From Candidatus Cloacimonadales bacterium (GTDB lineage Bacteria > Cloacimonadota > Cloacimonadia > Cloacimonadales > JAIOQZ01), in NCBI GenBank assembly GCA_963662655.2, contig CAXXTU010000002.1, positions 1,088,001-1,152,000 on the forward strand: a DNA stretch of 64,000 bases, written 5' to 3'. Positions 48,370 through 64,000 of this stretch are shown piece after piece. The translations under genes were made by a program, and so were the position numbers. The notes below the pieces were generated by a model. It made no database searches. It had not been told where the DNA came from and worked only from the letters and a program-made list of their open reading frames with translations. The first letter of the stretch is position 1. The number at the start of each line of letters is the position of its first letter.

Positions 48370-48741
48370 TTATTTGCCACCTAATATCTCAATAATATTA
48401 CCCGAAGGATCGTAAAATTGAAACCAGTAATCGCCCTGCCCCATATCCATAGGTTCACTTTGTATTATTTTCGTGTGGTTCTGTCGTAAATGATCAAATG
48501 TCTTCCACGCGGATTTCACGGAAAGCGCAAACGTGGCTCGTGTTCTGTCCTGCTTGAGATTCTGCGCCTTATTGCCTCCTTGAAGGTAAAGTCCCGGATT
48601 CTCGCCGATCGCGAGAAACGCGGCATCATTTCCCATCTCGGTCAATTTCTCGAGGCCGAGGACATCTTTGTAGAACGAGAGAGATTTATCGAAATCATCA
48701 ACATAAACCGAAACAAATGCAATCCCTTTGACGTGAATCAT
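48370..48741 (-). CDS. VOC/glyoxalase family protein
   Basis: VYVDDFDKSLSFYKDVLGL and FYDPSGNIIEI motifs. Confidence 0.9.
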   Translation of the reverse strand: MIHVKGIAFVSVYVDDFDKSLSFYKDVLGLEKLTEMGNDAAFLAIGENPGLYLQGGNKAQNLKQDRTRATFALSVKSAWKTFDHLRQNHTKIIQSEPMDMGQGDYWFQFYDPSGNIIEILGGK

Positions 48742-48852
48742 GAAGCCTCCCTGTATGTTAAGCATTCGTGCATTGAATATTCCAATCTTAATAAAAAAGC
48801 GAACCGGTGTCAACCGATTCGCTTAAATATTTCAACGGGTCCCGAAAGAGGA

Positions 48853-49341
48853 TCAATATTCTTCTTTGTGATGGAACTCCGCATCCTCCACCCATTGATT
48901 GGGGCGGCTTACATGCTCGATGATGTTCTCCAGAATCCGGCGATGTTTTTCCTCTTCGGCGATAATCTTTCTTATAAGGGCTTTCTCGTCTTCGTTCTCC
49001 ATATCTGCCAGCGCTTTGACATAGAGATCGATCGAGTTCTCTTCCATTTCCAGCGCCTGGTTGTACAGATTGAGCTGATCCTGCCCACAATCGATCTCGA
49101 CATTCTCTTTCCGCATTTTCGCGAAGATATTATCCGCCTCCGTCAGCACGGTAGTCGAGGCCATCGTGCCCGGATTGGACTGCTGTATCGACATAAAAAC
49201 TCTGCGGTGCTTGCTCTCATCGTCGGCAAGCATGTTCAGGATATAGCTCATCCCGCTGCCTTGCTCACAGTTGTTCGAGAGCATACGATAGAAAATCTCA
49301 CCGTCTTTCTCCATCTGGATCGCAAAATCGAGACTTTGCAT
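48853..49341 (-). CDS. Rubrerythrin-like ferritin-fold protein
   Basis: Paired E...ExxH motifs (MEKDG...DESKH; MEENS...EEEKH). Confidence 0.85.
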   Translation of the reverse strand: MQSLDFAIQMEKDGEIFYRMLSNNCEQGSGMSYILNMLADDESKHRRVFMSIQQSNPGTMASTTVLTEADNIFAKMRKENVEIDCGQDQLNLYNQALEMEENSIDLYVKALADMENEDEKALIRKIIAEEEKHRRILENIIEHVSRPNQWVEDAEFHHKEEY

Positions 49342-49361: not shown

Positions 49362-52300
49362 CTATTTTAGTATCGCTCCTGTCTGGCCTTCCAGTGAGAG
49401 CGTAACCTTGCCGCCGTCGACCTTGTATGTCTTACCGGTCATGAGGTCGGTTAGTTGAGCGCTTTTCACGGGGACATCCACGGTGATGTTACGAGGTGAG
49501 GTCTCGTTGTTGATTACTACGACGATTTCCTCGCCCTTGTACTCGCGCAGGAAGGAGTAGATTTTCTCCTTGGCTAGAAGCGTGTGGAAGTCACCCTTGG
49601 TGAGGGCCTTGTTTTCCTTACGAATCTTGATAAGCTTCTTGTAGTACTCGCGAAGCGCAACGCGATCTTGATTTTCCGTGTAGTTCCATTCGAACGGTCT
49701 GCGGCAATCCGGATCGTGCGCGCCCATCATTCCGATCTCGTCTCCGTACCATATATGCGGAGCGCCGACGTAGGTCATCTGGAAGAATGCGGCCATCTTG
49801 AGCTTGTTCACGTCGCCGCCGGCTGTCTCGAGATAGCGGTGCGTGTCGTGGCTGTCGATGAGATTCATCATCGCCTGGGTGGATTGGGTCGGATAGGTTA
49901 GCAATCCGGGCTTGAGATCGCGATCGAATGTCTTCGCGCTGCAGTTGCGCTGGTTGAAGAAGCGCTGCACCGGATCCTTGAAATAGGCATAGTTCATCAC
50001 GGCGTCGAAGTAGTCGTTGTTAACCCAGTCAACAGCGTTGCTCCAGATTTCACCAACGAGGTATGCGTCCGGTTTGACCTCTTTCACGCGTTCGCGGAAG
50101 AGTCTCCAGAACCAGAAAGGAACCTCGTTGGGGACATCAAGACGGAATCCGTCGAAACCGACATCGCCGATCCAGTAATCGACGAGGCCGAGAATGTAGT
50201 CCACCACCGGCTTGTTCGGCTGCGCCTGCGTGATATCCTTCACCGAATTCTCCGATGCGCTTGGGCGACTCTTGTCGTAATCGAGGTCGGGCATTTCGCC
50301 GAATCCCCACCAGCACTCGTAGTAATCGGCAGGCTTGTAGTTGCTTTCGGGAAGCGGCCATTTTTTCCACTCGTACCATTCGTAGTACTCGGAAGCGGGA
50401 CCATTCTTCTTACCGTCCTGGAATGCCCAGAACGTATCGCCCGTATGGTTGAACGCGACATCGAGGATCACGTGGATTCCCAGATCGTGCGCGTCTTTGA
50501 TGAAATCTTTGAGCTGCTGCTCGGTACCGAAGTGCGGGTCCATCTTCATGTAATCGGCTGCGTCGTACTTGTGATTTGAACGAGCCTGGAAGATCGGATT
50601 GAAGTAAATAATGGTGATGCCGAGATCGTGCAGGTAATCCAGCTTCTGGTGGATGCCGACGATATCTCCTCCGTAGAATGCCCACCAGTCCGGCTTTCCT
50701 TCCGGATGATACGGATTGCTGGTGAGCGGAGCGACGTCGTACCAGTCCTCGATCAAGCGATAATATACCTGATCCTTTTTCAGCTTCTTGCCTTTGGGCG
50801 GAGGGGTACGCATTCCGTCGTAATACCACTCGGAAAAGTCGGGATCGTTGTACTTGCTTCCATTGTAGAAACGTTCCGGGAATATCTGATAGATCACGCC
50901 CTCTTTAACCCAATTCGGGGTGATGAAGGGTTCCAAACCTGCTACCGGGTAGTGGAACAGCTTCGCATTGTTCAGGGTCTCGGCGATCTCGCCTTCGAGA
51001 AGGTAGAACTTCTTCGGACCATCGTGATAGACAAAGCAGTAATCGAAGGCTTCATCCGGATTCTTCAGTTCGACGAAAATCCGGTAGTATTCAAAGCTTC
51101 CATCTTCGGAAACGAGCTTCATCGGGAGTTCCTTACCGTCTTTCCAGAAGGTCACGTTCTCCACGTCGCCAAGGTGAGCCTTCGTCTTGAACTCAACGGT
51201 TTTTTCCGAGAGCGGATTCACCGTTTCGATCGACTGATCGGTCGAGATGCCGTAGGTGAGCATCTGGCCGTCGGCGACTTCCAGCGTGACCATCGGGAAG
51301 GTCTCGTCCACGAGCACCACAGAATTCTTTCCGCCGAAACCGTCATCGGCAAAGCGCTGCGCATTGGAATCGTGCAGCCATTCGATGCCGTCGACCACGA
51401 ACTTGTAATGGTATTCGTCCGGCTTGAGCAGCATGACGATCTCGAAGGTTCCGTCGCCGTTGTCGAGCATCCTGTCTTCTTTCTGGTTCCAGGCGTTGAA
51501 TGAGCCGGCGAGGTAGACTTCCTTGACCGGTTTGCCCGGAGTGTAGCGGAATTTCACCTTGCGAAGCGCATTCAGTTCCTTGGGATCGCCGGCGTAAACG
51601 ACAGAGTTCTGTCCGCCGTAACCGTCTCCGACGAACTCTTCCGCGCTCTCGTCCGCAAGCCAGTTGTCGTCCACAACAAACTTGTAGGCGTACTTGCCGG
51701 GCTGGAGATCGATGGTCGTGGAATACTCGCCACTCACTTCCTTCATTTTGTTCGCGGTTGGCGACCAGTTATTGAAATCGCCGGCCACATAGATATCATG
51801 CTTACCACCGATAAGAGGCTGGTAGGTGAATGTGACGGGTATAGCGCCCTGCGGAGATTTTTCCTGCGTCTTCGTTGCCACTTTCTTCACTCCTGTATCT
51901 TTACCCTCTCCGACAACCAGCACCGAATTCTGGCCGCCATAGCCATCGTCCATAACGTTGGAGTTGTTGGGATCGGGTTTCCAATCGGAACCGTTTACTA
52001 CGAATTTATACTGATATTCGCCCGGTGTCAAATCCAAAGTTACCGACCAGGTATCTCCGTCTTGCATCATCGGGGTTGCGGCCATGTCCCAGTTGTTGAA
52101 ATCGCCGGCAATGTTCACGGATGACGCGCCGGCGTCCGAATAAGTAACAACGGTTCCTTTACCTGAAACCGGTTTCTTTGCCGGGGCTTTTTTCTCAGCT
52201 TTCTTCGCTTCGCCTCCGACATTAACCACGGAATTCTTTCCGCCGTAGCCGTCGTCTGCCGTGTTGGGATTGTCGGGATCGGCAACCCAGTCAGAGCCGT

Positions 52301-53234
52301 TGACAACGAACTTGTACATGTATTCGCCCGGTGCCAAATCCAAAGTTACCGACCAGGTATCTCCGTCTTGCATCATCGGGGTTGCGGACATATCCCAGTT
52401 GTTGAAATCACCCGCGATATTCATGGATGACGCACCGGGATTATCATAGGTGAAGGTCACGTTTCCGGCTTGCGCGGTTTTCTTGGGGGCCTTCTTGGGA
52501 GCTGGTTTCTCCACTTTCTTCGCTTCACCACCGACGTTAACCACGGAATTCTGTCCGCCGTAGCCATCGTCTGCCGTGTTGGGATTGTCGGGATCGGCAA
52601 CCCAGTCGGAGCCGTTAACCACAAACTTGTACATGTATTCGCCCGGTGCGAGGTCCATGGAGATCGTCCAGGTGTTTCCGTCCTTCTCCATCGGTGTCGC
52701 GGCCATGTCCCAGTTATTGAAATCACCCGCGACATTCACAGATGACGCGCCTGGTTTATTGTATGTGAAGGTCACGTTTCCGGCTTGCGCGGCTTTCTTG
52801 GGGGCCTTCTTTGGGGCTTCCTTCACAACCTTGGACGCTTCGCCGCCGGTAACGGTCAGAACGGAGTTCGCTCCGCCGTAGCCGTCGTCTGCCGTGTTGG
52901 GATTGTCGGGATCGGCAACCCAGTCCGCGCCGTTGATAACGAACTTGTACATGTATTCGCCAGGTTTAAGATCCAGCGCGACCTGCCAGGTGTTCCCCAC
53001 CTTCTCCATAGGCGTCGCGGAGGAATTCCAGTCGTTGAAATCCCCTGCTACATGCACGCTGTTCGCGCTTGAATTCTTGTATGTTACAAGGACCCCAGAA
53101 GCCGGGATTTCCGGTCCGGAAGCCTTTTCCGCCTTCTGCTGTGTCTTTCCGTCAAAATCACCGAAGCCGAGTGTGGTACATCCGGCCAGAATGATCAGGA
53201 CCAAACAGCACAATGCTATGATTATACGTTTCAT
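49362..53234 (-). CDS. Lipoprotein GH13 neopullulanase/cyclomaltodextrinase-like enzyme with six tandem CBM48-type modules
   Basis: Lipobox LAGC; six VAGDFNxW...YKFVV...DDGYGGxNSV units; GH13 motifs IYQIFPERF, DVAFNH, GFRLDV, VGEIW, SHD. Confidence 0.92.
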   Translation of the reverse strand: MKRIIIALCCLVLIILAGCTTLGFGDFDGKTQQKAEKASGPEIPASGVLVTYKNSSANSVHVAGDFNDWNSSATPMEKVGNTWQVALDLKPGEYMYKFVINGADWVADPDNPNTADDGYGGANSVLTVTGGEASKVVKEAPKKAPKKAAQAGNVTFTYNKPGASSVNVAGDFNNWDMAATPMEKDGNTWTISMDLAPGEYMYKFVVNGSDWVADPDNPNTADDGYGGQNSVVNVGGEAKKVEKPAPKKAPKKTAQAGNVTFTYDNPGASSMNIAGDFNNWDMSATPMMQDGDTWSVTLDLAPGEYMYKFVVNGSDWVADPDNPNTADDGYGGKNSVVNVGGEAKKAEKKAPAKKPVSGKGTVVTYSDAGASSVNIAGDFNNWDMAATPMMQDGDTWSVTLDLTPGEYQYKFVVNGSDWKPDPNNSNVMDDGYGGQNSVLVVGEGKDTGVKKVATKTQEKSPQGAIPVTFTYQPLIGGKHDIYVAGDFNNWSPTANKMKEVSGEYSTTIDLQPGKYAYKFVVDDNWLADESAEEFVGDGYGGQNSVVYAGDPKELNALRKVKFRYTPGKPVKEVYLAGSFNAWNQKEDRMLDNGDGTFEIVMLLKPDEYHYKFVVDGIEWLHDSNAQRFADDGFGGKNSVVLVDETFPMVTLEVADGQMLTYGISTDQSIETVNPLSEKTVEFKTKAHLGDVENVTFWKDGKELPMKLVSEDGSFEYYRIFVELKNPDEAFDYCFVYHDGPKKFYLLEGEIAETLNNAKLFHYPVAGLEPFITPNWVKEGVIYQIFPERFYNGSKYNDPDFSEWYYDGMRTPPPKGKKLKKDQVYYRLIEDWYDVAPLTSNPYHPEGKPDWWAFYGGDIVGIHQKLDYLHDLGITIIYFNPIFQARSNHKYDAADYMKMDPHFGTEQQLKDFIKDAHDLGIHVILDVAFNHTGDTFWAFQDGKKNGPASEYYEWYEWKKWPLPESNYKPADYYECWWGFGEMPDLDYDKSRPSASENSVKDITQAQPNKPVVDYILGLVDYWIGDVGFDGFRLDVPNEVPFWFWRLFRERVKEVKPDAYLVGEIWSNAVDWVNNDYFDAVMNYAYFKDPVQRFFNQRNCSAKTFDRDLKPGLLTYPTQSTQAMMNLIDSHDTHRYLETAGGDVNKLKMAAFFQMTYVGAPHIWYGDEIGMMGAHDPDCRRPFEWNYTENQDRVALREYYKKLIKIRKENKALTKGDFHTLLAKEKIYSFLREYKGEEIVVVINNETSPRNITVDVPVKSAQLTDLMTGKTYKVDGGKVTLSLEGQTGAILK

Positions 53235-53259
53235 GCGTAACTCCTGTATTCTCGATTAT

Positions 53260-54219
53260 TTAATTTGCCAGCATCGCTTCGATGACTGTCGTGAAGCTTC
53301 CTGCCGAATCCCACTGCGGGATCGAATCGTTGGCGAAATACTGATCGCCGCCGCCGCCGATGAGGGCAACAAGGCCGATCGATTGGCCGGCCGGAGCGTT
53401 TTCAGCGCCGTAGATTTGCTCGAAAGGAATCGCGATCTCGATGCAGCTTGCGGTCATGGCGACCTCAATCTCGAGCGGATTTGTGTCGATCGCGGCAGGA
53501 TCGGAGAAGCTCGCGCAGAACGCGTCGGCTAGCGCCCAATTACAGATGCCGATATCAGCGCCGAAGAAATCAGGTGCCGTAACGGTTTTGCGCAGACGAT
53601 TACCCGGGTCTCCCCCACTGAGCGTAGAGAAGTCATTCACACCGGTCTCGTCACCGAAGTCGGTATCGATGTAGAAGTTCACAGTGTTGTCCGAGGACGA
53701 GAATTGTCCGGTCACGCAGATAAACAAATGCGTAGCGTTCTGTGCCATGTAGAAGCAGTTGAAATCGTTCGGACCCCAGTCGGAGGCGTTGTTGTTGATG
53801 TAGAACGGCTCTCCCCAATCGGTCGAATCCGCATCGACGGTGATTTCTCTGAATTCCATAGGCTCGGAATACTCGAAGACAACCGTGCTGGTTGTTTCAG
53901 TTTTATTAGGCTCCAGCGCTATCGTGAGGCTCTTGCTTCCATAGCTTTCGGAGAAGAAATAAATCGAATACTCTCCCGCCGAGAGACCGTCAAGATGCCA
54001 GTAACCATCTGAATCGGTCGTGGTTTGAGCAGCTTTGATCATCTCGCCGTCGGAATTGAGATAGAGCTCCACGGTCGCCGACAGCGTATCGGTTGAAGCC
54101 TCCTCGAACTCGACATAGCCTTCCACGGAGGCGTTGTGGTAGAAGGGGCTGTCGGTGGGTGAATCTTCACATGCGATAAAAATCAGCATGATGGCGATAA
54201 TGCTTGTTATCCATTTCAT
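53260..54219 (-). CDS. Lipoprotein with carboxypeptidase-regulatory-like and DOMON/CBM9-like domains
   Basis: Lipobox FIAC; TDSDGYWHLDGLSAGEY, NFYIDTD and IEIAIPF motifs. Confidence 0.7.
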   Translation of the reverse strand: MKWITSIIAIMLIFIACEDSPTDSPFYHNASVEGYVEFEEASTDTLSATVELYLNSDGEMIKAAQTTTDSDGYWHLDGLSAGEYSIYFFSESYGSKSLTIALEPNKTETTSTVVFEYSEPMEFREITVDADSTDWGEPFYINNNASDWGPNDFNCFYMAQNATHLFICVTGQFSSSDNTVNFYIDTDFGDETGVNDFSTLSGGDPGNRLRKTVTAPDFFGADIGICNWALADAFCASFSDPAAIDTNPLEIEVAMTASCIEIAIPFEQIYGAENAPAGQSIGLVALIGGGGDQYFANDSIPQWDSAGSFTTVIEAMLAN

Positions 54220-54236
54220 ATATCGTACCTCGTATT

Positions 54237-54653
54237 CTATTCGATCGTCAGCACGGAATTCTTTCCGCCGTAACCATCGTCCGTATAGTCGAGCGCGTTG
54301 GGGTCCGTGAACCAGGAGTTGCGATCGACAACATATTTGTAGGTGTATCGTCCGGGAGGCAGATCCTTGACCAGTGTCCAGATTCCGTCGTCCGCTTCCA
54401 GGTCGCCATGCGTACCGTCGTCATACATCTTATCGATATTGGGGTCGTACTGCGCGCTCGTCGACGCGGTTCCTCCCCAGAGGTTGTCCGGGAAGTCTCC
54501 TGCCAGCGTCACCAGCCGAGCAGATGGCGCTTCGTACTGGAACACCACCCCTTTTTTCGACTTGTACGGGGGCGGAAGTCTCTTCTTGATGAAGTTGAGC
54601 TCGCAACCCGCAAGTAGCATCAGAGCCACGGCAATCACAATATATCTCTTCAT
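54237..54653 (-). CDS. Small CBM48-type glycogen-binding lipoprotein
   Basis: Lipobox LAGC; LAGDF...YKYVVD...DDGYGGKNSV; inserted MYDDGTHGDLEADDGIWT loop. Confidence 0.85.
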   Translation of the reverse strand: MKRYIVIAVALMLLAGCELNFIKKRLPPPYKSKKGVVFQYEAPSARLVTLAGDFPDNLWGGTASTSAQYDPNIDKMYDDGTHGDLEADDGIWTLVKDLPPGRYTYKYVVDRNSWFTDPNALDYTDDGYGGKNSVLTIE

Positions 54654-54668
54654 GATTCGCGCTCCTTG

Positions 54669-56738
54669 TTAGAATTTCAGCGTCGCTTCGAGCATGAAGC
54701 GTTTCTCGTCTTTCAGCGCTTCTTCCGCAGTGCGGATTTTCTCGCCGGTTCCGAGATACGCGTTCTCGGTGTATTCTTCATAATCGGCGGCTTCGCTCAG
54801 GTACTCGTCACGTCCACCGTAGTAGAACTCGTCCGTCACGTTGTTGAGCGTTCTCGGATTAACACCCCAGCCGAAGGAGAGTCGCACGTCGTCGGAGAGC
54901 TGGTATGCCAGCTCGGAGTAGTTGCTGACGAACACATCCTCGTCGTTACCGAAATCGGTCTCGAGACCCTGATATGGATCGTTGTAATACGGAATACGCG
55001 TGCTCGACCAGATCATCCACTCTTTGTTCAGATGGATTCCCACCGCAATCACGTTCTCGATATATTTGGCTTCCTTCATGAATCCCTGGTGCGCAAAGGT
55101 AGCGTCCCAGTCGATATCGACCGGGAAGTATACCTTGAACTTGTATCCCACCGAGAGATTCCAGGTAAGGGCTTCCTCGTATCCGAGTATGGTATAACGA
55201 TCGAATGGAACGTCCGAGTAGCGCTGGAACCAGCGACCGTTGCCGTCCGTCTTTTCCATGTACTTGTAGTAGTTGTTCCAGTCGACCAGCGAATCCGGGA
55301 ACTCGTAGGTCCAGTACTTCATCCCGATGCTCGCGGTGAAATCTCCCGCCTCGAAGTCGGCGTTCAGGCCGATGCGGTTGCGGGTGATTTCCTCGGTTGT
55401 CGTCTCGGGATTCGGGGTCAGTCCGTTCGGGTTCGCACCCGTCTCAAGGATGTACTCGATCTTGTTGGTTTGCAGATTCGCGTTCAACTTCAGAGCCGCC
55501 GGGAAATTCACTCGGAGGCCCAACCACGCGGAGTTGCCTTCCATCCAGGTGAATTCCTCTTCCGTGATGTATTCGTAGCCTTCTTCGCCGTAACGCTTGT
55601 GGTTGTTGCGGTTCTCGAAGCTGTAGTATTCCGCGTCGAGCGCCAGAAGCATCGGATTTTGCCAGCCGATTCCCATCATGTTGTGCTCGTAGGTCATATC
55701 GAAGGCATAGCTGTCGTGCTTCTGGAGGAGCTCATCCGATGCCGAGACTCTCACGCCGTACAGGGTTCCACCCAGGCGAAGGGTTTTCTGATTGCCCTCG
55801 CGCTCGGAGAAAAGCCAGCTCGTGGTAAGCCTTCCGGCTCCGGTGTCGGTTTCGGAATCGGTCGCGTCGTCGGAGTACAAGCCTTCGAAAGCCACCCGTA
55901 TTGGGGTTCCTGCAAGCAGGTCATTGAAGAACTGATCCGCCGTGTCCAGGTATACACCGCGCTGGTCGTAACCGAACGCGTAGTTGTACCTTCCGATGTC
56001 GCCCACGATGTGCATGGGATCGTCGAAAGTGATAAAGCCGTATTTATCGAACGCGGTAAGCTTGAAGTACTCAGTTTTGAGCTTCAGGTACGTTCTTTTA
56101 TATACGAGATGCGTACGCCACATGTCGCTGCCTTCATCGGTGTTGTTGATGCTCATCATCGTGAAGCCTTCGAAGTACTGATTGAACCGGACTTTGATAC
56201 CGAGATTGATATTGTGTTCCGGTTTATCGAGCATGTAGCGCGATTCTTCTTCGTCTTTACTGAAGATGTATTTGGTATAATAACGGCCCGTAAAATAGAC
56301 CTTGGGATTAATCATGCTGGCGATGCCTTCGCGCTCGGTTTTCTCCTCGGCGACGAGCTTGCCTTTGCCGTCGATCTCCACCAGCGAATTGGATCCGCCG
56401 TAGCCGTCATCCATCAGGTTGCTGTGGTCGGGATCGAAGAACCAGTTGCCGTCCACCACAAACTTGTATTGGTGTTTCCCGGGCGGCAACAGCACGGTCG
56501 TTGTCCACATGCCGTCACTGTCTTTTTGCATCGGTGTCGCACTCGAGTTCCATTCGTTGAACGAACCCGCTACGGAAACCGACTGGGCGTCGGGGGCATC
56601 GTAGGTGAACGCAACGCCATCCGAGACCACTTTGACCGCTGCGCCGAGCCACACTATCGGCAGGCTCAGAAGCACAAGCAAGATCAGTTTGTACATTCGT
56701 GTTGTATTACAAAGCCGACGTATTAAAGGCGCTTTCAT
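54669..56738 (-). CDS. CBM48 fused to a predicted outer-membrane beta-barrel
   Basis: Signal peptide; CBM48 (VAGSFNEW...DDGYGGSNS); about 550 aa of aromatic-rich amphipathic strands; terminal LEATLKF. Start is 56738 (RBS AGGAGA) or 56696. Confidence 0.7.
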   Translation of the reverse strand: MKAPLIRRLCNTTRMYKLILLVLLSLPIVWLGAAVKVVSDGVAFTYDAPDAQSVSVAGSFNEWNSSATPMQKDSDGMWTTTVLLPPGKHQYKFVVDGNWFFDPDHSNLMDDGYGGSNSLVEIDGKGKLVAEEKTEREGIASMINPKVYFTGRYYTKYIFSKDEEESRYMLDKPEHNINLGIKVRFNQYFEGFTMMSINNTDEGSDMWRTHLVYKRTYLKLKTEYFKLTAFDKYGFITFDDPMHIVGDIGRYNYAFGYDQRGVYLDTADQFFNDLLAGTPIRVAFEGLYSDDATDSETDTGAGRLTTSWLFSEREGNQKTLRLGGTLYGVRVSASDELLQKHDSYAFDMTYEHNMMGIGWQNPMLLALDAEYYSFENRNNHKRYGEEGYEYITEEEFTWMEGNSAWLGLRVNFPAALKLNANLQTNKIEYILETGANPNGLTPNPETTTEEITRNRIGLNADFEAGDFTASIGMKYWTYEFPDSLVDWNNYYKYMEKTDGNGRWFQRYSDVPFDRYTILGYEEALTWNLSVGYKFKVYFPVDIDWDATFAHQGFMKEAKYIENVIAVGIHLNKEWMIWSSTRIPYYNDPYQGLETDFGNDEDVFVSNYSELAYQLSDDVRLSFGWGVNPRTLNNVTDEFYYGGRDEYLSEAADYEEYTENAYLGTGEKIRTAEEALKDEKRFMLEATLKF

Positions 56739-56821
56739 TCTATCTCCTGTTCCATCGATTTTCATGAACGATTGATTGCGTTGCAGGCGTGTACCCTGCG
56801 TCTTGTTATCTAACGTTTTCA

Positions 56822-58330
56822 TCAGAACCACCCCTTGAGGATCAGCTTAACTTCCTTCTCCATATCGCCACCGGAAGAAAATCCATCGTCGTTGACAAGC
56901 CCGTACTGTCCCCACCAACTCGGTCCGTATTGCAGGTAGAGCTCGGTGTTGCCGCTGAGCCTGTACTGGATCTCTCCAAAGATGCTGTGACGCGATCCTT
57001 CTTCATCGTTAGCGATCATACCGCGCATGAAGAATTTCCATTCGTCGGTAAGGTTGACGCTGACCTCTACGCCGGTAAGCTGTACCTCCGAGTCCTCGCC
57101 CATGTCCTTGATCTTGAACTGCGTAAGCAGCTTGGCCAGGCGATTCTCAACGGAAAGCTCCGCAAAGAAGTCGTAGTGTTTGTACTTCGTGTTGTTGTAG
57201 TCTTCGTCTTTTTTATTGTAGTATATCTTGCCCTTGAAGCCCTTCACGAATTCGATGTACATCTCCGTGTAGAGATTCGTGGTGGGGTTGTAGACTTCCT
57301 TCTTCTGGGTGTCGAACGTTCCGTCGGGAGCGATCCTGGTAACATAAACCGTATCGGGGACATGGTTCTGCCATGCCGAGTAGTTCACCGTAAGCGTTAT
57401 GGCGCGGTTGGGAACCAGGTATTTGGTGTCCAGCCAGTAGCCGTATTCGTTGTACTTGTTCTCTCCCATATAATTCCGGTAGGTGTCGCCGTACGACCAT
57501 CCACCGGGTTTCAACAAGATGTAGCCTAATTTTGCCGTTCCGACGCGGATACCCATGAATTCCCCTTTCAACGCGATGTTGGATTTCAGGATATCTTCGT
57601 CTTCGTATTCATCGTTACGTTGCTGGATGTCTTCTTCAGCGGGGACATCGCTCCAGGCGAATTCCGTGTTGAGGTAGTACCGTCCCATGCCGGCGTGGAA
57701 ATCCACTGCCGCCACTTCGTTGTACTCCTTCTCCTGTCCCGTGGAGTAATTCTTACGCTGATAGAACACGCCGAAACGGAGCCGTTCCGAGAGATTCTGG
57801 CGATACCGCATCAGGTGAACGTCGTCGCCCTCGCCGGACGAGAAATCGCTCACAACGTACGTAAAGCTTCCGCCGAACGGATACCAGAGATCCCAGCGAG
57901 CGCCCTGTCCGTTGCCGTCGTTGTTCACCGAGCCGGTATTCACGATTCCCAGCATGGAGCCGTCCGTCCAGTAGTGGCCGCTTTCACGGGTGAAAAGGAC
58001 GCCCTGTCCTCCCCATCCGCTTCTTTCGTAGCGATACTGAACATGGCCCTCGCCGAATATCGATTCCGTGTTACCGGTGTTCTTGTAAGAATCCTGTCCC
58101 TTGTCGTTATCCGCGTAAATTTTGAAGAATACTTCCGCGTTCTTCAGAGGGCTGGAGAAGAAGCGCGTCTCGATGTAGTAGTTCGGGTCCCACATGTTCC
58201 ACTTGTATTCCTCGGAATCGTAGGTTCTGCCGAACTGTCCTTCGAGGTAACCCTCCATCTTGATGGGGCCAGCCTTCAGAAGCGCAGCAAAAAGCAAAAT
58301 CAGGATCAATGCGATGGTATGTTTTTTCAT
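56822..58330 (-). CDS. Predicted outer-membrane beta-barrel protein
   Basis: Signal peptide; Tyr/Trp/Gly-rich alternating strands; C-terminal LILKGWF. Confidence 0.7.
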   Translation of the reverse strand: MKKHTIALILILLFAALLKAGPIKMEGYLEGQFGRTYDSEEYKWNMWDPNYYIETRFFSSPLKNAEVFFKIYADNDKGQDSYKNTGNTESIFGEGHVQYRYERSGWGGQGVLFTRESGHYWTDGSMLGIVNTGSVNNDGNGQGARWDLWYPFGGSFTYVVSDFSSGEGDDVHLMRYRQNLSERLRFGVFYQRKNYSTGQEKEYNEVAAVDFHAGMGRYYLNTEFAWSDVPAEEDIQQRNDEYEDEDILKSNIALKGEFMGIRVGTAKLGYILLKPGGWSYGDTYRNYMGENKYNEYGYWLDTKYLVPNRAITLTVNYSAWQNHVPDTVYVTRIAPDGTFDTQKKEVYNPTTNLYTEMYIEFVKGFKGKIYYNKKDEDYNNTKYKHYDFFAELSVENRLAKLLTQFKIKDMGEDSEVQLTGVEVSVNLTDEWKFFMRGMIANDEEGSRHSIFGEIQYRLSGNTELYLQYGPSWWGQYGLVNDDGFSSGGDMEKEVKLILKGWF

Positions 58331-58341
58331 CTACGTAATCC

Positions 58342-59241
58342 TTATATTTCAAAGTCGTCCATTGCGAACCGAACCCCGAAGGTCAAGCGGTATGTGCTAC
58401 CCAGTTCGTCGTGCTGAAAAACAGCAGCGTCAAGTGTCCACCAGCTCGATTTCAATCCGAAACCGGCGGTGAGGTTCTCTCCACTCAAACCGATGCGCGG
58501 CGCGAATACGTCGTAAAACCACATCTCGCAACCGAGGTTCAACTGGCTATCGCTGCCTTCCCATTTATAATCCGCCAGGAAGTTAACGATACCTCTCCAA
58601 CTGTAACACGCTCCCGCCACATATTGACGATCGAGCTTGTCGCCTTCCTCCACCAGCTTGAACTCGGGCTGGAAGATATTGCGCGTCACAAAACTGATCG
58701 TGAGCGGCTTCATCGGCTGAACCTGCATCCCGAGGTCCATGTCGAAATTACCGACTTCATCCGCGTCCGAGTAGCCCGGAACGCTTACGCGCATGTATTT
58801 CAGCGTCGCACCAAACCGTAGCGGCACATTCCTGAGCCACACGATCGATGCGCCACCCAGCGATAAGACATCCTCGTAGTACTCGCCTTCCAGGCCGACC
58901 TGCGTCCAGGCGAAACCGGTGCGGATGTACGGAAACGGCATCGAGAACGCGATCATTTCGCTGTTCAAGCCGGAGATTCCGTACAGATTCTGGTGCGACA
59001 TCGAGAAGGAGTATTTCTCCACACGAGTCAATCCGGCCGGATTCCAGAAGAGCGCGGTGGGATCGTCGCTGAGCGCGGTGTAGGCGTTTCCGAGAGCGTA
59101 CGCACGCGCACCGTGATTCATACCCTTGAAATCGGCGTGAGCCAATGCAGGTAGGAGAATCAGGATGGTCAGCGTAAGCAGTTGGATGGTAACGGTCACT
59201 TTTTTCCGGGATTTCCCGGAATCAATCAATGTTTCTTTCAT
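58342..59241 (-). CDS. PorV/PorQ-like (FadL-type) outer-membrane protein
   Basis: GARAYALGNAYTALSDDPTALFWNPAGL motif; HDELGSTYRLTFG end. Confidence 0.8.
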   Translation of the reverse strand: MKETLIDSGKSRKKVTVTIQLLTLTILILLPALAHADFKGMNHGARAYALGNAYTALSDDPTALFWNPAGLTRVEKYSFSMSHQNLYGISGLNSEMIAFSMPFPYIRTGFAWTQVGLEGEYYEDVLSLGGASIVWLRNVPLRFGATLKYMRVSVPGYSDADEVGNFDMDLGMQVQPMKPLTISFVTRNIFQPEFKLVEEGDKLDRQYVAGACYSWRGIVNFLADYKWEGSDSQLNLGCEMWFYDVFAPRIGLSGENLTAGFGLKSSWWTLDAAVFQHDELGSTYRLTFGVRFAMDDFEI

Positions 59242-59282
59242 AAAAAAAACAAACCTTATCTCTTTGTATTAACGGTCATTGG

Positions 59283-60392
59283 TCACTTGATCAATACGAC
59301 CGCCTCCTTGTGACTGACTTCTTTGGAATCGGCGATGAATCGTAGGATGTACACGCCGAAATTCACCAAATTCCCATCTTGATCCCGTCCGGTCCATTCC
59401 CACTCGAGATTGCCGGTCGATGCAGCCGTCCCGACCTTTTTGCCGTCGAGGTTGAATATCTCGACACTGAAGATCGAACCGCGATTGGTTTCGAGCGAGA
59501 AGGTCAGCTTTTCGCCACGCGTCGGCGCGAAAACCTTACCGTCGTCGAAGATAACGCGTTCCACCTTCAGGGATTGGGCTTCGAACGGCGGACGCTTGAA
59601 GAACGAAGTGTGGTAGTTGGGAAGAACGCCCATATCCGGTTCTCCGTCACCGTTCTGGTCAATCGGGACTTCCACATAGTTGTCCAGGACAACGGTTTCC
59701 GTCTGATCGGGCATTCCGCTGAGGTTGTCTGGCGCTGAGTCCGGCCCTGCGGTATGGTCGCCGCCGCCGGTGATCACAGCCAGAAACTTGATCGTAGGGT
59801 AGTTCAGCATCGAGCGTTCATCGCTGTAATAGATGCCGGCCCAGGGGATTTTCGCCTCCAGGGCGCGATCGCTCGAACCGGTGTTGAACGTGGCGAAGTC
59901 CTCGTATCCGAGGTATCCGTCGCCCCATTCGTCGGCGGTGTCCGAAAGACCTTCGCGTACTTCCCAGAACTGCGGATTGTTGTTGGTATCCCAGGTCGCC
60001 AGGAAGAAATCAGGATAGACGTTGTAAAAACGGAATTCGCGGTTCCAGGTGTTCAGCTCTTCCATGTCGTCGATGCCGTAGTCGTCGTACACATCGATGA
60101 ACAGGATCACATTGTTGTCCCAGCTCGTGGCGTCAACCGCAACGTAGAGGTAGGTTTGGTCCCAGGTCACGCGAATCTGACGGATATCGTTGTTCTCGCC
60201 CCAGCGGGAGTCGTTGGGATATTCCAGCGGAATGCCAGTGGAATCGCTGAGAACGTATTCGTCCGTCGTGAAATCGCTGCTGTAACCGTCGATGATGATT
60301 CGTCCGGAGAGATCAGCGGCGGTAACAGCGGATAGAGTAATTGCAATGACAAGAACTGTCAGGGTAATAAACCACTTCATAGATTTGTCCAT
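59283..60392 (-). CDS. Secreted CBM9/DOMON-like protein with a variant FlgD-Ig C-terminal domain
   Basis: IIIDG..SDF, YLYVAVD and LEAKIPW motifs; tail FAPTRGE...WTGRDQDGNLVNFGVYILRF. Confidence 0.7.
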   Translation of the reverse strand: MDKSMKWFITLTVLVIAITLSAVTAADLSGRIIIDGYSSDFTTDEYVLSDSTGIPLEYPNDSRWGENNDIRQIRVTWDQTYLYVAVDATSWDNNVILFIDVYDDYGIDDMEELNTWNREFRFYNVYPDFFLATWDTNNNPQFWEVREGLSDTADEWGDGYLGYEDFATFNTGSSDRALEAKIPWAGIYYSDERSMLNYPTIKFLAVITGGGDHTAGPDSAPDNLSGMPDQTETVVLDNYVEVPIDQNGDGEPDMGVLPNYHTSFFKRPPFEAQSLKVERVIFDDGKVFAPTRGEKLTFSLETNRGSIFSVEIFNLDGKKVGTAASTGNLEWEWTGRDQDGNLVNFGVYILRFIADSKEVSHKEAVVLIK

Positions 60393-60401
60393 TTTAAAGA
60401 G

Positions 60402-60430
60402 GAAAGGGGAACCGCAACCAGCGATTCCCC
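60402..60430 (-). terminator. Terminator-like hairpin inside the locus
   Basis: GGGGAATCGC-TGGTT-GCGGTTCCCC followed by TTTC on the minus strand. Confidence 0.6.
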
Positions 60431-60439
60431 AAACCGGAA

Positions 60440-61822
60440 TTATTTGATCAGTATTATTTTGCCTGAAGACGTGATGATACCGCGTTTCAATTTCATCAGA
60501 TAGACGCCGGAGGTAACGTTTCTGCCGTTATCGTCGGTTCCGTCCCACACGATCTTGTTCTCGCCGACAGGTTGAATGTCGTTGATCAGCGTACGGACTT
60601 TCTGGCCGCGCACGTTGTAGATTGCGAGCTCGACCTTTTGCTCTTTATCGAGCGTGAACGCGATGGTTGTTTCCGGATTGAACGGGTTCGGGTAGTTGTA
60701 AAGGTTCGCATCACTGTACTCGGGAACCGTTTCGTCCACGAAATCGTTGGTCATTTGGCCGTACTGGACGTCAACAGTCTGCGTAGCGCTTGCGTCGTCA
60801 ATGGTGATAACATGGTTGGTGAAAGCGGGTGCTTCCACGTCCATGCTGTTGCGAGCAAACTTGAACTCAATCGCTTTCCAGGAACCTGCCGGGAAGAGAA
60901 CGTCGATCGACCAGACGTTGTCGCCCTGATCGGTAAGAGGGTTGTTGTTCGCGGTGAATTCCCAATCGAGCGGTGAAACGCTGCCGCAGATTGCAAGCGT
61001 GGTGAAATCGACACCCGCATTAACCGAGTCCGCAACGTCGCAGTTGAAGGTAACGGTTACGTCCTGGGTGGTGTAGTTGGCCGGATCGTCGTCGTTGAAA
61101 TATACGACATCGAGAACCATGGTGGCGTTGGTGTCGTCGATTTCGAGCGTACGGTTGCCAATCGCGTCTTCCCAGTTGCCGCCGTTGACGAACTTGTACT
61201 CGATCATCGGGGTGGTGCCTGCTACGAAAAGAACGTCGCCGGCGTAGATGTCGTCGCCCTGGTCGGTAAGAAGGTTCGTTCCGGCAGACCAGTTATTGAA
61301 GGAGCCAGCGACGGAGACGTCACCCTGGACGCCGACAAGGCTCAGATCGACCCTAAAGGTTACCGTAACGTCCTGCTGAAGGGGTGAACCGAAGGTGTAT
61401 TCGCCCGGGACATTGAGGTTGAATGGTCCTTCACCTGCCTGGTCTGTACCGTAAGAATAGGTCTCATCCGTTGCGTCATAGCCTTCGCAGAAGAAGTTGA
61501 TAACATCCCCCGTAGAGAAAGTTCCAGCCGCGATGGTTACGCTGTATTCGTCGTTGTTTCCGACTTCACCGAGATACGCCATGTCCACGGCCGTGTACTC
61601 GGTTGCGCTGGTGAGTTTGTAGTAGAAAGTCGCGGAAAGATCTGCGCCCTGGCCTTCACCCGGGGTCACGCCGTCTTTCCAGATTTGATAGTAAACGGTC
61701 AAGTCTTCTGTCGGGACATGGAATGTACCCGAATTCGGCCAGATGTTTCCGCTCCAGCCAATCTCTGCATTCAATACGAGTGCGCACGAAACAAGTATCA
61801 TTAAGATAGCGATTCGTCTCAT
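60440..61822 (-). CDS. Secreted non-catalytic starch-binding protein (two CBM20-like modules plus a FlgD-Ig tail)
   Basis: RBS AGGAGG; VTVTFRVD...VAGSFNNW...EYKF and VTVTFNCD...IEFKF; NYPNPFNP tail. Confidence 0.7.
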   Translation of the reverse strand: MRRIAILMILVSCALVLNAEIGWSGNIWPNSGTFHVPTEDLTVYYQIWKDGVTPGEGQGADLSATFYYKLTSATEYTAVDMAYLGEVGNNDEYSVTIAAGTFSTGDVINFFCEGYDATDETYSYGTDQAGEGPFNLNVPGEYTFGSPLQQDVTVTFRVDLSLVGVQGDVSVAGSFNNWSAGTNLLTDQGDDIYAGDVLFVAGTTPMIEYKFVNGGNWEDAIGNRTLEIDDTNATMVLDVVYFNDDDPANYTTQDVTVTFNCDVADSVNAGVDFTTLAICGSVSPLDWEFTANNNPLTDQGDNVWSIDVLFPAGSWKAIEFKFARNSMDVEAPAFTNHVITIDDASATQTVDVQYGQMTNDFVDETVPEYSDANLYNYPNPFNPETTIAFTLDKEQKVELAIYNVRGQKVRTLINDIQPVGENKIVWDGTDDNGRNVTSGVYLMKLKRGIITSSGKIILIK

Positions 61823-61964
61823 GTTGAACCTCCTGTTTTTTATTTCTACTGTTTGTATCAATATTCATAGAAGAATGCATCAAGCCTTTCGATACGCTTT
61901 CAATGCCATCTTCTATAAAAAATACACGTTATAACTCTATCGTCAAGAATACTTTACTGGTTCT

Positions 61965-62801
61965 TCAACCTTTTACGCTTCCAAGCGTCAGGCCGGAAAC
62001 CAGCCACCGGCTCAGGAAGAGGAACAGCGCCACGACCGGAACGCTTATCAGCAGCGATCCCGCAGCGTACATGCCCCACTCTGTCGTCATGTTGCCTTGC
62101 AGACTCTTGAGCCCGAGCGGGATAGTGAACATCTCTTCGTACCAGAGCACCTGCGCGGCTACGATGTACTCATTCCAGGCAGCCATGAAGGAGAAGAGCG
62201 CGGTAATCACCAGCGCCGGAGCCGCCAGAGGTAGAATGATCTTCCAGAACGTGTAAAATCTCCCCGCGCCGTCAACCATCGCGGATTCCTCCAGGCTGAA
62301 CGGGATGGTATCGTAGTAACCCTTCATCAGCCAGATGCAGAACGGTAATGCAGTCGCGCTGTACATGATGATCAAGCCGAGGAAACTGTTGATCAATCCC
62401 AGCTTCGAAAGCATGATGAACAGCGGTAGAAGCAGCATCGTCGCCGGAAACATCTGCGTAATGAGCAGACTAAGGAGCCCCGCCTTACGACCGGGGAAGC
62501 GATATCGCGAAAAGGCGTATCCCGCAAGGGATGCGAAAGCGACGCCCACGATGGTAACCGTGATGGAGACCATCAGGCTGTTGCGAATCCACAGAAGGAA
62601 GGGCTTCTCCGTGAAGAGCCGCACGTAGTTGTCGAATGTCGCGTCTGCGGGAACGATCGCCAGCGAGCGATTGAGAAGGTTGTCGCCGGGACGAAGCGAG
62701 ATCGTGAAGATACGCAACACCGGATAGACCGATATGGCTACGAACAGCAGCACGATGGCGTAGATGATCGTTGTTGTCGTGATCTTTTTAAACTTGTTCA
62801 T
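61965..62801 (-). CDS. malG: Sugar ABC transporter permease, MalG-like
   Basis: AGYAFSRYRFPG, QMFP, EAA loop KGYYDTIPFSLEESAMVDGA and LVSGLTLGSVKG. Confidence 0.88.
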   Translation of the reverse strand: MNKFKKITTTTIIYAIVLLFVAISVYPVLRIFTISLRPGDNLLNRSLAIVPADATFDNYVRLFTEKPFLLWIRNSLMVSITVTIVGVAFASLAGYAFSRYRFPGRKAGLLSLLITQMFPATMLLLPLFIMLSKLGLINSFLGLIIMYSATALPFCIWLMKGYYDTIPFSLEESAMVDGAGRFYTFWKIILPLAAPALVITALFSFMAAWNEYIVAAQVLWYEEMFTIPLGLKSLQGNMTTEWGMYAAGSLLISVPVVALFLFLSRWLVSGLTLGSVKG

Positions 62802-62812
62802 GCGTCCCTCCC

Positions 62813-64000
62813 CTATGCCTTTTCCGCAACCTGGCTGCGGTTCATGAACGTCAATCCGAAGAACGCGAGGAACAGGAAGATCAGCACGGAGAATGCCGCC
62901 GCGTACCCGTAGCGGTAAAGGTTGAACGCGGCCCGATAGACGTATGTCACCAGGATATGCGAGTGGTCCGCAGGTTGTCCGCCGTTGGTTACCAGCCAGA
63001 GCACGTTCAGGTTGTTGAAGGTCCACACCGTTCCGAGCGTGATCGCGGGAACCATCACCGGTTTCAGGAGCGGAACGGTCACGTTCCAGAATTGCTTCCA
63101 CGATGACGCGCCGTCGATTTTCGCCGCCTCATACAGCTCTTTGGGTATCGATTGCAGACCGCCCAGCGCGATGACCATCATGAAAGAGAATCCCAACCAG
63201 ATGTTGGTGATGATCGCGGCGATGAACGCCATCGTCGGCTCGGAGAGCCAGTTCACTCCGGCAATACCCAGATGATTGAGCATCAGGTTGATCGCTCCGG
63301 TATCGGAGATGAACATCCCGCGCCAGGTAAGCGCGACAATGTACTGCGGAACCGCCCACGGCAGGATCAGCAGCACCCGGAAGATCGGTTTGCCGGGAAG
63401 CTTCCTGTTCATCAACAGCGCAAGCATCACGCCGAGCGTAACGTGGAAGAACACGTTGACGATCGTCCAGATGAGCGTTTTGATGAATACCGCAACAAAT
63501 TTATGATGCGTAATAAAGTACTTTAGGTAATCCCACGTGACGAATCCGCCTTCGCTACCGATCGAGTTGCGGTAGTCCGCGAAGCTCATATCGAAGTCCC
63601 ACAGCACCTTCCCGTATTGCTCCACGCCGATGACTTCCCACGAATTCACGTTGGTCATGTTCATATTGGAAAACGAAAGGACGATGTTGTAGAAGAAGGG
63701 ATAGATCACCACGCCGAACATCACGATGGCTGCCGGTATGGAGATCAGGATTGCGAACCGCGCGTTACGGGCTTCCATCGTATATGGATTGCGAAGCAGC
63801 GCCAGGACGAATTTGAAGATCAGCAAGTACGTGAGATAAAGACCCAGCGCGATGCCGATGATGTAAATAATGTATTTCGTGATATGCTGGCTGCTCCCAG
63901 CTCCGGCGACCTCGTACATGTCGTTGATCTTCTCGATACACAGCTTCTGCTGGTAGGTTGCCCCCTCTTCCGGGGTCATATTCCCGCCCACAACGCTTTG
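62813..64000 (-). CDS. malF: Sugar ABC transporter permease, MalF-like; 5' end lies outside the window
   Basis: ILPWAVP, LQSIPKELYEAAKIDGA and FNNLNV motifs; frame open to the window edge. Confidence 0.85.
   Translation of the reverse strand, partial: QSVVGGNMTPEEGATYQQKLCIEKINDMYEVAGAGSSQHITKYIIYIIGIALGLYLTYLLIFKFVLALLRNPYTMEARNARFAILISIPAAIVMFGVVIYPFFYNIVLSFSNMNMTNVNSWEVIGVEQYGKVLWDFDMSFADYRNSIGSEGGFVTWDYLKYFITHHKFVAVFIKTLIWTIVNVFFHVTLGVMLALLMNRKLPGKPIFRVLLILPWAVPQYIVALTWRGMFISDTGAINLMLNHLGIAGVNWLSEPTMAFIAAIITNIWLGFSFMMVIALGGLQSIPKELYEAAKIDGASSWKQFWNVTVPLLKPVMVPAITLGTVWTFNNLNVLWLVTNGGQPADHSHILVTYVYRAAFNLYRYGYAAAFSVLIFLFLAFFGLTFMNRSQVAEKA

Follow-up and report, generated by a model that had tools for sequence, protein, structure and literature searches.

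How do maltodextrins cross the outer membrane of a bacterium with no recognizable SusD or LamB? The question is raised by a ten-gene locus of a Candidatus Cloacimonadales bacterium, which spans positions 49362..64000 of a 64,000-nt stretch of DNA (contig CAXXTU010000002.1, 1,088,001 to 1,152,000), hereafter named the window, to which all coordinates without a prefix refer. Two outer-membrane routes for maltodextrins are described in the accessible part of a 2026 review, one through the TonB-driven SusC/SusD and the other through a maltoporin coupled to MalEFGK (PMC13543919). The original prediction proposed a third architecture, in which surface-displayed CBM48 binders and non-TonB barrels feed an ATP-binding cassette (ABC) importer. 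Indeed, ten open reading frames (ORFs) are found at this place in the predicted order, all on the minus strand and with intergenic gaps of 11-142 bp, in a genome that is 98.95% complete and in which 3,102 ORFs were called. From sequence comparisons and predicted folds, we consider it probable that two unclassified, paralogous, and plug-less barrels form, together with a small CBM48 lipoprotein, a TonB-independent channel for maltodextrins derived from starch or glycogen, which would be backed by a periplasmic sink and an ABC importer.

Two predicted, unclassified barrels and their putative partner proteins

The two barrels, named A (502 amino acids (aa); 56822..58330) and B (675 aa; 54669..56696), are encoded by consecutive genes. 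The start of barrel B is either at 56696 (675 aa) or at 56738 (689 aa), rather than at 56831. The AlphaFold2 model of barrel A (pLDDT 89.6, pTM 0.82) begins directly with strand 1, has no plug, and consists of ~24 strands, and that of barrel B (pLDDT 89.1, pTM 0.78) consists of an N-terminal CBM48, a less confident linker, and ~22 strands; strands were counted manually from DSSP lists, the 24 of barrel A leaving out one hairpin. Both proteins end with a Phe. Neither matches a Pfam barrel or NCBIfam model, Plug (PF07715) and PF00593 included, and 69 of 71 barrel A homologues are without any Pfam match, the others displaying one N-terminal CsgG-like domain and one chance match. Two homologues (P0201 and P0213) have an extra N-terminal domain, which is CsgG-like in P0213, named Elusimicrobiota. 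A barrel A profile run against PDB sequences returned chance ribosomal matches only. As assessed by fold comparison, barrel A is closest to the PapC/FimD ushers, the barrels of which have 24 strands (Z 15.7-16.9, root mean square deviation (rmsd) 4.2-6.5 Å, 10-11% identity), and its Foldseek TMq is at most 0.53. Barrel B matches trimeric porins (Z 13-14) and maltoporin 1mpr (Z 12.9, rmsd 7.0), and its top Foldseek rows are TonB receptors, with TM-scores mostly of 0.25-0.33, 0.41 at best, and 7-11% identity. AlgE, PelB, and Wzi (Z 11.6 with barrel A) are also among the matches, which are generic only, and the barrels may belong to a family that is not listed there. As had been predicted, neither matches a characterized family of porins or TonB-dependent transporters.

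When broad profiles of the two barrels were compared, they aligned in register from strand 1 (hhalign 97.7%, E 2e-12, 201 columns), including the loop after strand 5. Barrels A and B are therefore likely to be distant paralogues, although similarity between barrel profiles may also arise for generic reasons. Narrower comparisons did not detect this relationship, pairwise BLAST giving nothing and profiles from narrow alignments a match that is not significant (10%, E 0.003). As judged by an alternation heuristic, conserved residues facing the lumen of barrel A are on strands 16-24 and 1-6, and this face is rich in Glu, Lys, Arg, and aromatic aa (W130, R126, D128, Y339, E341, Q385, R417, and F432); barrel B is less conserved by the same heuristic. 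In both barrels, the lumen could take up loops that have conserved motifs. Those homologues of the two barrels that are named belong to Cloacimonadota, and the neighbors of the barrels in a language-model search are clusters from Cloacimonadota and Eiseniibacteriota, followed by DUF6029. Barrels of the latter family are linked to plug-less Wzi-like barrels in the accessible part of PMC9603273, and a hidden Markov model (HMM) of DUF6029 (PF19494) has no match in the query or in 71 homologues. A FastTree tree of 83 barrel A homologues, which has many open forks, was used only for choosing queries. A predicted complex of a shorter relative pair (P0012 and P0111) scored a median of 0.22 relative to a mark of 0.32, with no controls folded, and is not used as evidence.

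The gene after barrel B encodes a 138-aa CBM48 lipoprotein (54237..54653), the homologues of which keep a basic segment (IKKRLPPP-type) next to the lipid Cys on its C-terminal side. CBM48 is also found at the N terminus of barrel B and six times in the last protein of the locus, a 1290-aa lipoprotein with a neopullulanase-type GH13 domain (49362..53234), as assessed by profiles and by its closest solved relatives, alpha-amylase II/neopullulanase (E 2e-114); its catalytic Asp-Glu-Asp motifs are present. The eight motifs predicted in these three genes were all counted (6+1+1), and DG[YF]GGxNS occurs in no other ORF among the 3,102 in the genome, with a chance expectation of 0.007. It was nevertheless ruled out as a signature of the system because it is an ordinary CBM48 hairpin, shared with the CBM48 of the solved pullulanase 5OT1. 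Surface display of these modules, which was part of the original prediction, is not borne out, and most of them are probably periplasmic. In barrel B, the CBM48 comes before strand 1, and since the N terminus of outer-membrane barrels with an even number of strands is normally on the periplasmic side, this is where the module would reside. The amylase is a lipoprotein in 15/15 Cloacimonadota loci listed, with two to six CBM48. Outside the phylum, 10 of 11 homologues with a readable start have, as judged by eye, a plain signal peptide and neither a lipobox nor a C-terminal sorting domain (CTD), four further homologues with unreadable starts being left out, which suggests that the enzyme is periplasmic and SusA-like.

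Four genes of the locus encode putative binders and an anchor. The 369-aa protein (59283..60392), a predicted surface glucan binder, combines a Trp/Asp-rich conserved domain of no known family with a divergent CTD, and the 319-aa lipoprotein (53260..54219) combines a transthyretin-like domain with a homologue of the same domain (96.6%, E 6e-10 by profile comparison). The labels CBM9-like and DOMON-like that had been given to these domains found no backing in Pfam or PDB sequence matches (neither domain was folded), and glucodextranase-C proteins gave no match with the 369-aa domain either. W64, W116, W134, R118, and D135 of the 369-aa domain are invariant in 20 rows, the 319-aa domain also has invariant Trp and Asp residues, and we infer that both bind sugar. 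The 473-aa secreted protein (60440..61822), previously labeled CBM20-like, scores instead as X25 (PF22058, over the cut-off), with domains of the starch-binding type, and has a signal peptide and a typical CTD (TIGR04183, over the cut-off). The CTD of the 369-aa protein is weak with public models, with weak CHU_C scores in 7/20 homologues, and was recovered by a CTD profile derived from the genome (E 4e-11). Its neighbor, a 299-aa PorV/PorQ-like barrel (58342..59241), scores 62.6 bits with NF033709 (E 4.5e-17), under the cut-off of 90 that four other paralogues in the genome exceed, and is predicted to be its dedicated anchor. Such cognate pairs have a precedent in type B CTD cargo and PorP, as described in the accessible parts of PMC9143113 and PMC12618676.

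The genome encodes 197 ORFs with a CTD by its own profile and ten PorV-family matches at nine places, with a same-strand CTD neighbor at 5/8 of the genes examined. A separate SprA scores 515 bits (cut-off 200), and SprA-like frames are found in 10/10 other carriers checked, four over the cut-off. Since carriers have these separate genes (11/11 checked), the barrels are not needed as a CTD translocon, and this candidate role was dropped. GldN had no match in the genome, but neither did its control, and the search did not extend to the other PorKLMN motor/ring subunits. The accessible part of PMC11285876 describes type IX secretion systems (T9SS) as possibly present in Cloacimonadota and absent outside the Fibrobacteres-Chlorobi-Bacteroidetes group.

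Conservation of the locus and its link to a maltose-type importer

The inner-membrane step is encoded by the first two genes. The gene predicted to encode MalF does contain this permease, and is in fact the 3′ part (62813..64000) of a 785-aa MalE-MalF fusion (SBP_bac_1 and BPD_transp_1) that starts 1,170 bp past the window end. Its best models are those of MalE and MalF, both scoring below cut-offs. The MalG-like permease (278 aa; 61965..62801, with the start set at 62801) matches NF008231 with an E of 4e-49, also under the cut-off. All components of a CUT1-type importer are present, i.e. a solute-binding protein, two permeases, and a MalK-type ATPase encoded elsewhere. The latter, the single OB_MalK protein in the genome, is an orphan that is 60% identical to the MalK encoded directly 3′ of the amylase in relatives (5/20 loci). 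Because the MalE/F/G equivalog cut-offs are not reached, the substrate of this importer is assigned from its context. In carriers of the phylum, 24/25 fusion matches are open frames of 705-799 aa (L001:813-3170 in the host), and in loci outside the phylum MalE and MalF are encoded by separate genes.

No alternative outer-membrane route for maltodextrins was found. The predicted lack of SusC, SusD, and LamB in the window extends, for SusD (PF07980) and LamB (PF02264), to the whole genome, and LamB also has no match in 201 genomes of the phylum, with an E. coli control positive. There is no SusCD pair upstream of the locus or elsewhere in the genome. The sole PF00593 match is a 724-aa TonB-dependent receptor, encoded 3 kb upstream of the fusion gene (L001:6196-9143), which we rejected as a part of the system because its best score is B12-type, a FecE-like ATPase is encoded next, and there is no SusD. 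This receptor has no match in 20 relatives' loci, only some of which extend that far.

Next, we searched the 201 genomes of the phylum. Barrels A and B occur in the same 25 genomes, and in 0/88 genomes of the largest family sampled. A MalE orthologue occurs in 25 genomes as well, 24 of them in common with the barrels (G078 has MalE only and G093 the barrels only). SusD occurs in six genomes, overlapping with barrel carriers in G123 only. Because the genomes are kin, these counts show linkage and are not a statistical test. Genomes without SusD or LamB carry a conserved and unclassified barrel pair that tracks a maltose importer nearly one to one. Loci were obtained from 20 of the other 24 carriers; in all of them barrel B comes after barrel A (20/20), and where enough flank is available, the PorV-like gene precedes the pair (17/17) and the small lipoprotein follows it. 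The 473-aa and 319-aa genes are variable; in L028, L031, and L033, malG and the 369-aa gene do not have the former between them. One relative's locus adds GH77 and phosphorylase genes, and GH77, phosphorylase, GH57, and glucodextranase-type modules adjoin some loci. Small two-gene insertions between core genes, which leave the order intact, are found in L032 (4786-5311 and 7609-8152) and L041 (11392-12090), and by eye resemble toxin-antitoxin or nucleotidyltransferase pairs.

Conservation of the locus extends to at least five phyla. When 1.84 billion representatives were searched with a profile, 160 proteins were returned, and a degenerate pattern, which matches 29/83 homologues, found 120 loci when scanned over 33/64 parts of a species-genome collection. 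Barrel A is present by HMM in 83 of these loci, 52 of which have flanks; seven of these bear a Cloacimonadota title and are probably repeats of genomes from the phylum sample. Other record titles are Eisenbacteria, Krumholzibacteriota, Latescibacterota, Gemmatimonadota, WOR-3, Spirochaetes, and Fibrobacteraceae, which are depositors' labels and in part unreliable, since the Fibrobacteraceae-titled L117 falls within the phylum sample of G205. In the flanked loci, the PorV-like gene precedes barrel A in 46/47, the CTD protein precedes the PorV-like gene in 46/47, and barrel B follows in 46/48. A stricter script found the PorV-like gene upstream in 40/47, six of the seven misses having PorV hits in the first count and resulting from over-long ORF calls in GC-rich DNA. 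Where at least 8 kb is available on both sides, GH13 or Mal ABC genes are near the barrels in 17/19 loci. In three sets of eligible loci, the small lipoprotein comes after the barrels in 17/17, 31/35, and 17/19 cases. The arrangement of CTD protein, PorV-like, barrel A, CBM48-barrel B, and CBM48 lipoprotein recurs in at least four other phyla, in most cases with GH13 or MalEFG nearby, and the expectation that the gene set is conserved together is confirmed both there and in phylum relatives. In the loci from this collection, the CTD protein is often larger (1,500-2,100 aa), with immunoglobulin (Ig) and glucodextranase-C domains, and SusD was found in 0/5 carriers outside the phylum.

In phylum samples around four outside genomes, barrel A is present in 9/10 (8 full-length), 58/101, 20/121, and 9/151 genomes, and 20 loci were hand-picked from three of these samples. 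None of the eight WOR-3-group loci has a PorV hit beside barrel A, six have the small CBM48 lipoprotein, and in four the 369/319-type domain is a lipoprotein. Because several of these loci are without the PorV/CTD pair, we define the minimal core as barrel A, barrel B, and the small CBM48 lipoprotein. The dedicated PorV-like gene with CTD cargo, which the original prediction had included, is common but outside this core. Spirochaete-group loci have kept CTD-PorV-barrel A in 7/7 cases, three of them with a third barrel-B-like gene. One genome has a second copy of PorV, barrel A, barrel B, and lipoproteins, without a CTD gene.

Possible mechanism and rival explanations

We favor a channel because the barrels and the lipoprotein are kept together beside maltose-import genes and because the barrels track the MalE orthologue. 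In brief, (i) an SprA-type system would export the 369-aa binder, which its own PorV-like barrel would hold at the surface, with the X25 protein and the 319-aa lipoprotein as optional extra binders, and separately encoded secreted amylases would cut the polymer. (ii) Chains would traverse barrel A along its charged/aromatic lumen face; barrel B would be the partner subunit of barrel A, and the 138-aa lipoprotein would dock on the barrels and narrow or gate a wide pore. (iii) In the periplasm, the CBM48 of barrel B and the CBM48 array of the enzyme would catch and trim chains, keeping the flow inward. (iv) MalE-MalF/MalG, with the MalK encoded elsewhere, would import the products, so that ATP hydrolysis at the inner membrane, and not TonB, would drive net uptake.

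Several findings weigh against a channel of this kind. The top PapC usher match of barrel A (Z 16.9, rmsd 6.5 Å, 367 aligned, 10% identity) is a protein-export pore. CBM48 is comparable in size to the plug of an usher or to a pilin, and together with the usher-like fold this means that the conserved lumen of barrel A could bind protein rather than sugar. TonB proteins, with TonB_C domains, are encoded elsewhere in the genome. No CBM48 was recognized in either of the two barrel-sized genes that lie downstream in three loci of the spirochaete group, and the adjacent barrel B is missing in 2/48 loci: L068 has no barrel B and a GH31 neighbor, and L086 has barrel A alone, the barrel B and lipoprotein of this genome being located at another place close to a MalG-like gene. 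The fetched flanks of L086, L120, L199, L200, L203, L209, L210, and L212-L216 contain neither an alpha-glucan enzyme nor an ABC gene. Moreover, genomes of one phylum are not independent, and the alignments consist mostly of Cloacimonadota rows.

The usher-like fold raises an alternative that we consider unlikely, in which the barrels are an export or display pore threading CBM48 and Ig-repeat lipoproteins to the surface, and sugars enter via general porins. It would explain the high conservation of the barrel A lumen, the regular presence of the small lipoprotein after the barrels, and the arrays of Ig-like repeats, long and variable, in neighboring lipoproteins of up to 1,483 aa in related loci. 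However, the barrel A model has neither an usher plug nor the periplasmic domains of ushers, the amylase has a plain signal peptide in 10/11 readable homologues outside the phylum and is hence not a displayed lipoprotein there, barrel B has its own CBM48, and it is a MalE orthologue that accompanies the barrels in 24/25 genomes. That the barrels are instead closed scaffolds or lectin barrels, which press binders and enzymes onto starch granules as Wzi does for capsule and transport nothing, appears quite improbable. The loops that might fill both lumens, the Wzi fold match, and the language-model proximity to DUF6029 would fit such a role; on the other hand, these loops look too short for a 24-strand lumen, DUF6029 has no HMM match, and no other outer-membrane route was found for maltodextrins, the genome having no match to LamB or SusD and a single TonB receptor that is B12-like.

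Barrel B, with ~22 strands and an N-terminal globular domain, does resemble TonB receptors in outline, and these are its top Foldseek rows in a genome that has TonB_C domains. We nevertheless regard it as very improbable that it is an atypical TonB-energized transporter, with CBM48 or the small lipoprotein as a plug and the CTD protein as SusD: the TM-scores and identities are low, fold alignments with TonB receptors span the barrel portion only, no Plug or TonB-barrel Pfam model matches, and no tonB/exbBD gene was recognized in the loci read, although these were not searched by family. Export of an alpha-glucan (capsule or glycogen-like), with CBM48s guiding it outward, is barely credible, even with AlgE, PelB, and Wzi among the fold matches, because the neighboring genes encode hydrolases and an importer that includes a solute-binding protein; neither a synthase nor a flippase was recognized in the annotated loci, and one locus has a trehalose-phosphate synthase nearby.

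The channel that we favor has counterparts in known systems. LamB and MalEFGK of enterobacteria likewise combine an energy-free barrel with a MalE/MalFG/MalK importer, as described in the part of PMC13543919 available to us, and MalE/F/G/K-like proteins are found here. The present locus in addition has a tethered CBM48, partners that are lipoproteins, cargo of the T9SS type, and MalE fused to MalF. It has no LamB match and, instead of the 18-strand LamB barrel, has two larger paralogous barrels of ~24 and ~22 strands. Bacteroides Sus (SusCDEFG and SusA) likewise unites binders at the surface with a barrel in the outer membrane and a neopullulanase in the periplasm within a single locus, as outlined in the same part of that review (PMC13543919). 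In contrast to Sus, the locus here has no SusD, no plug, and no TonB receptor, an ABC importer takes the inner-membrane step, and the binder that is predicted to be lid-like carries a CTD and is paired with an anchor barrel of its own. The X25 protein presumably resembles SusE/F in role.

The placing of a divergent-CTD gene immediately upstream of the small barrel dedicated to it, the weak CHU_C scores, and the presence of SprA recall type B CTD cargo with PorP/SprF shuttles (PMC9143113 and PMC12618676, in part). Here, however, the anchor is PorV/PorQ-like (below cut-off) and not PorP, the pair sits in a sugar-uptake locus, and several WOR-3-group loci replace it by a lipoprotein version of the same domain. 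The BamG-BamH canopy of the Bacteroidota β-barrel assembly machinery is similar in layout only, with a FadL-type barrel beside a larger barrel in support of an extracellular canopy, but its BamH is a lipoprotein and it serves to insert proteins, according to the accessible part of PMC12611786. Despite the fold of barrel A, the resemblance to PapC/FimD does not extend to an usher Pfam match, and no chaperone or pilin genes were recognized. The system would work like LamB and MalEFGK with Sus-like accessories, but it is not assigned to LamB, SusC/SusD, ushers, or DUF6029 by family matches. Its logic, i.e. binder, pore, periplasmic hydrolase, and ABC importer, recombines known ideas, and its barrel module has no known family.

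The third architecture of the original prediction stands insofar as the barrels are unclassified, the genes are kept together, and no SusCD pair is present, but its core is the barrel pair with the lipoprotein and most CBM48s are probably periplasmic. A more ambitious version is a third class of outer-membrane glycan importer, a heteromeric channel with two paralogous plug-less barrels (three in some of the spirochaete group), a CBM48-lipoprotein gate, a SusD-like cap delivered by the T9SS, and a CBM48 ratchet in the periplasm by which alpha-glucans, long or branched, would be pulled inward without TonB. We put this forward tentatively, as somewhat short of an even chance on sequences and models. 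If true, it would be a main route for starch and glycogen in bacteria of the Krumholzibacteriota and Eisenbacteria groups, as well as in part of the Cloacimonadota, WOR-3, and Spirochaetota. If the barrels do transport, they would be a new channel family with a defined substrate, which would explain starch or glycogen uptake in these uncultured diderm groups, show T9SS cargo/anchor pairs used as a nutrient-uptake module, and provide a marker for glycan loci that are invisible to SusCD-based predictors. In the accessible part of PMC12590816, CBM48, GH13, and GH57 are listed in Cloacimonadota without a transport locus, and that of PMC8542988 gives starch-degrading secreted enzymes and, in a figure legend, a Mal transporter, without an outer-membrane route. 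As had been suspected, the system appears to be undescribed, since no description of the barrel pair or locus was found in the literature searched, mention in supplements or subscription papers being possible.

Neighboring genes and related loci

A terminator-like hairpin (60406..60430, minus strand; 10 pairs, 7 G-C), detected by a consensus scan only, lies between the 473-aa gene and the core, and the ten genes may therefore not form a single transcript. Promoter-like sites at the locus are no commoner than in shuffles (10 versus 11.7). The two genes upstream of the MalE-MalF fusion are, by eye, what we take to be xerD and guaB. A rubrerythrin gene (48370-49341, minus strand) starts 20 bp past the amylase, followed by another terminator-like hairpin (48797-48824) and a glyoxalase-family gene. 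Further downstream are a 997-aa beta-propeller/fn3 CTD-type protein (45349-48342, minus strand), kept downstream of the locus within the same genus, and, on the opposite strand and 4 kb past the amylase, a 999-aa protein with GH57, Ig_N_CWD1, and a CTD (42120-45119, plus strand). The latter is a candidate secreted amylase for the system; it has no match in 20 relatives' loci, and GH57 genes are inside some outside loci (L044). The window also encodes a 1219-aa lamin-tail-domain CTD-type protein (31114-34773, plus strand) and a 3240-aa protein with repeated Laminin-G/ConA-like domains (1881-11603, minus strand), likely a large surface adhesin.

Divergent-CTD genes with their own PorV-family paralogue are found at four other places in the host genome (G000:C2 2855966-2858785, 2871090-2879406, 3508862-3514881, and 1852541-1858860), which suggests that a cargo/anchor code is general in the Cloacimonadota phylum. 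Five genomes (G204, G438, G440, G536, and G544; L207-L213) of the phylum sample centered on a Spirochaetes-titled record have SprA-like frames of ~1,900-2,000 aa (split in G204), all below the cut-off, as well as PorV-like and CTD genes; L211 has genes that by eye resemble spirochaete flagellins. Finally, Krumholzibacteriota-group genomes have a second and divergent barrel-pair locus (L172:7266-13061; L214-L216), which may have another role or regulation. In L172, a small gene bearing a c-di-GMP-binding motif of the MshE type and a CDP-alcohol phosphatidyltransferase gene come before the pair.

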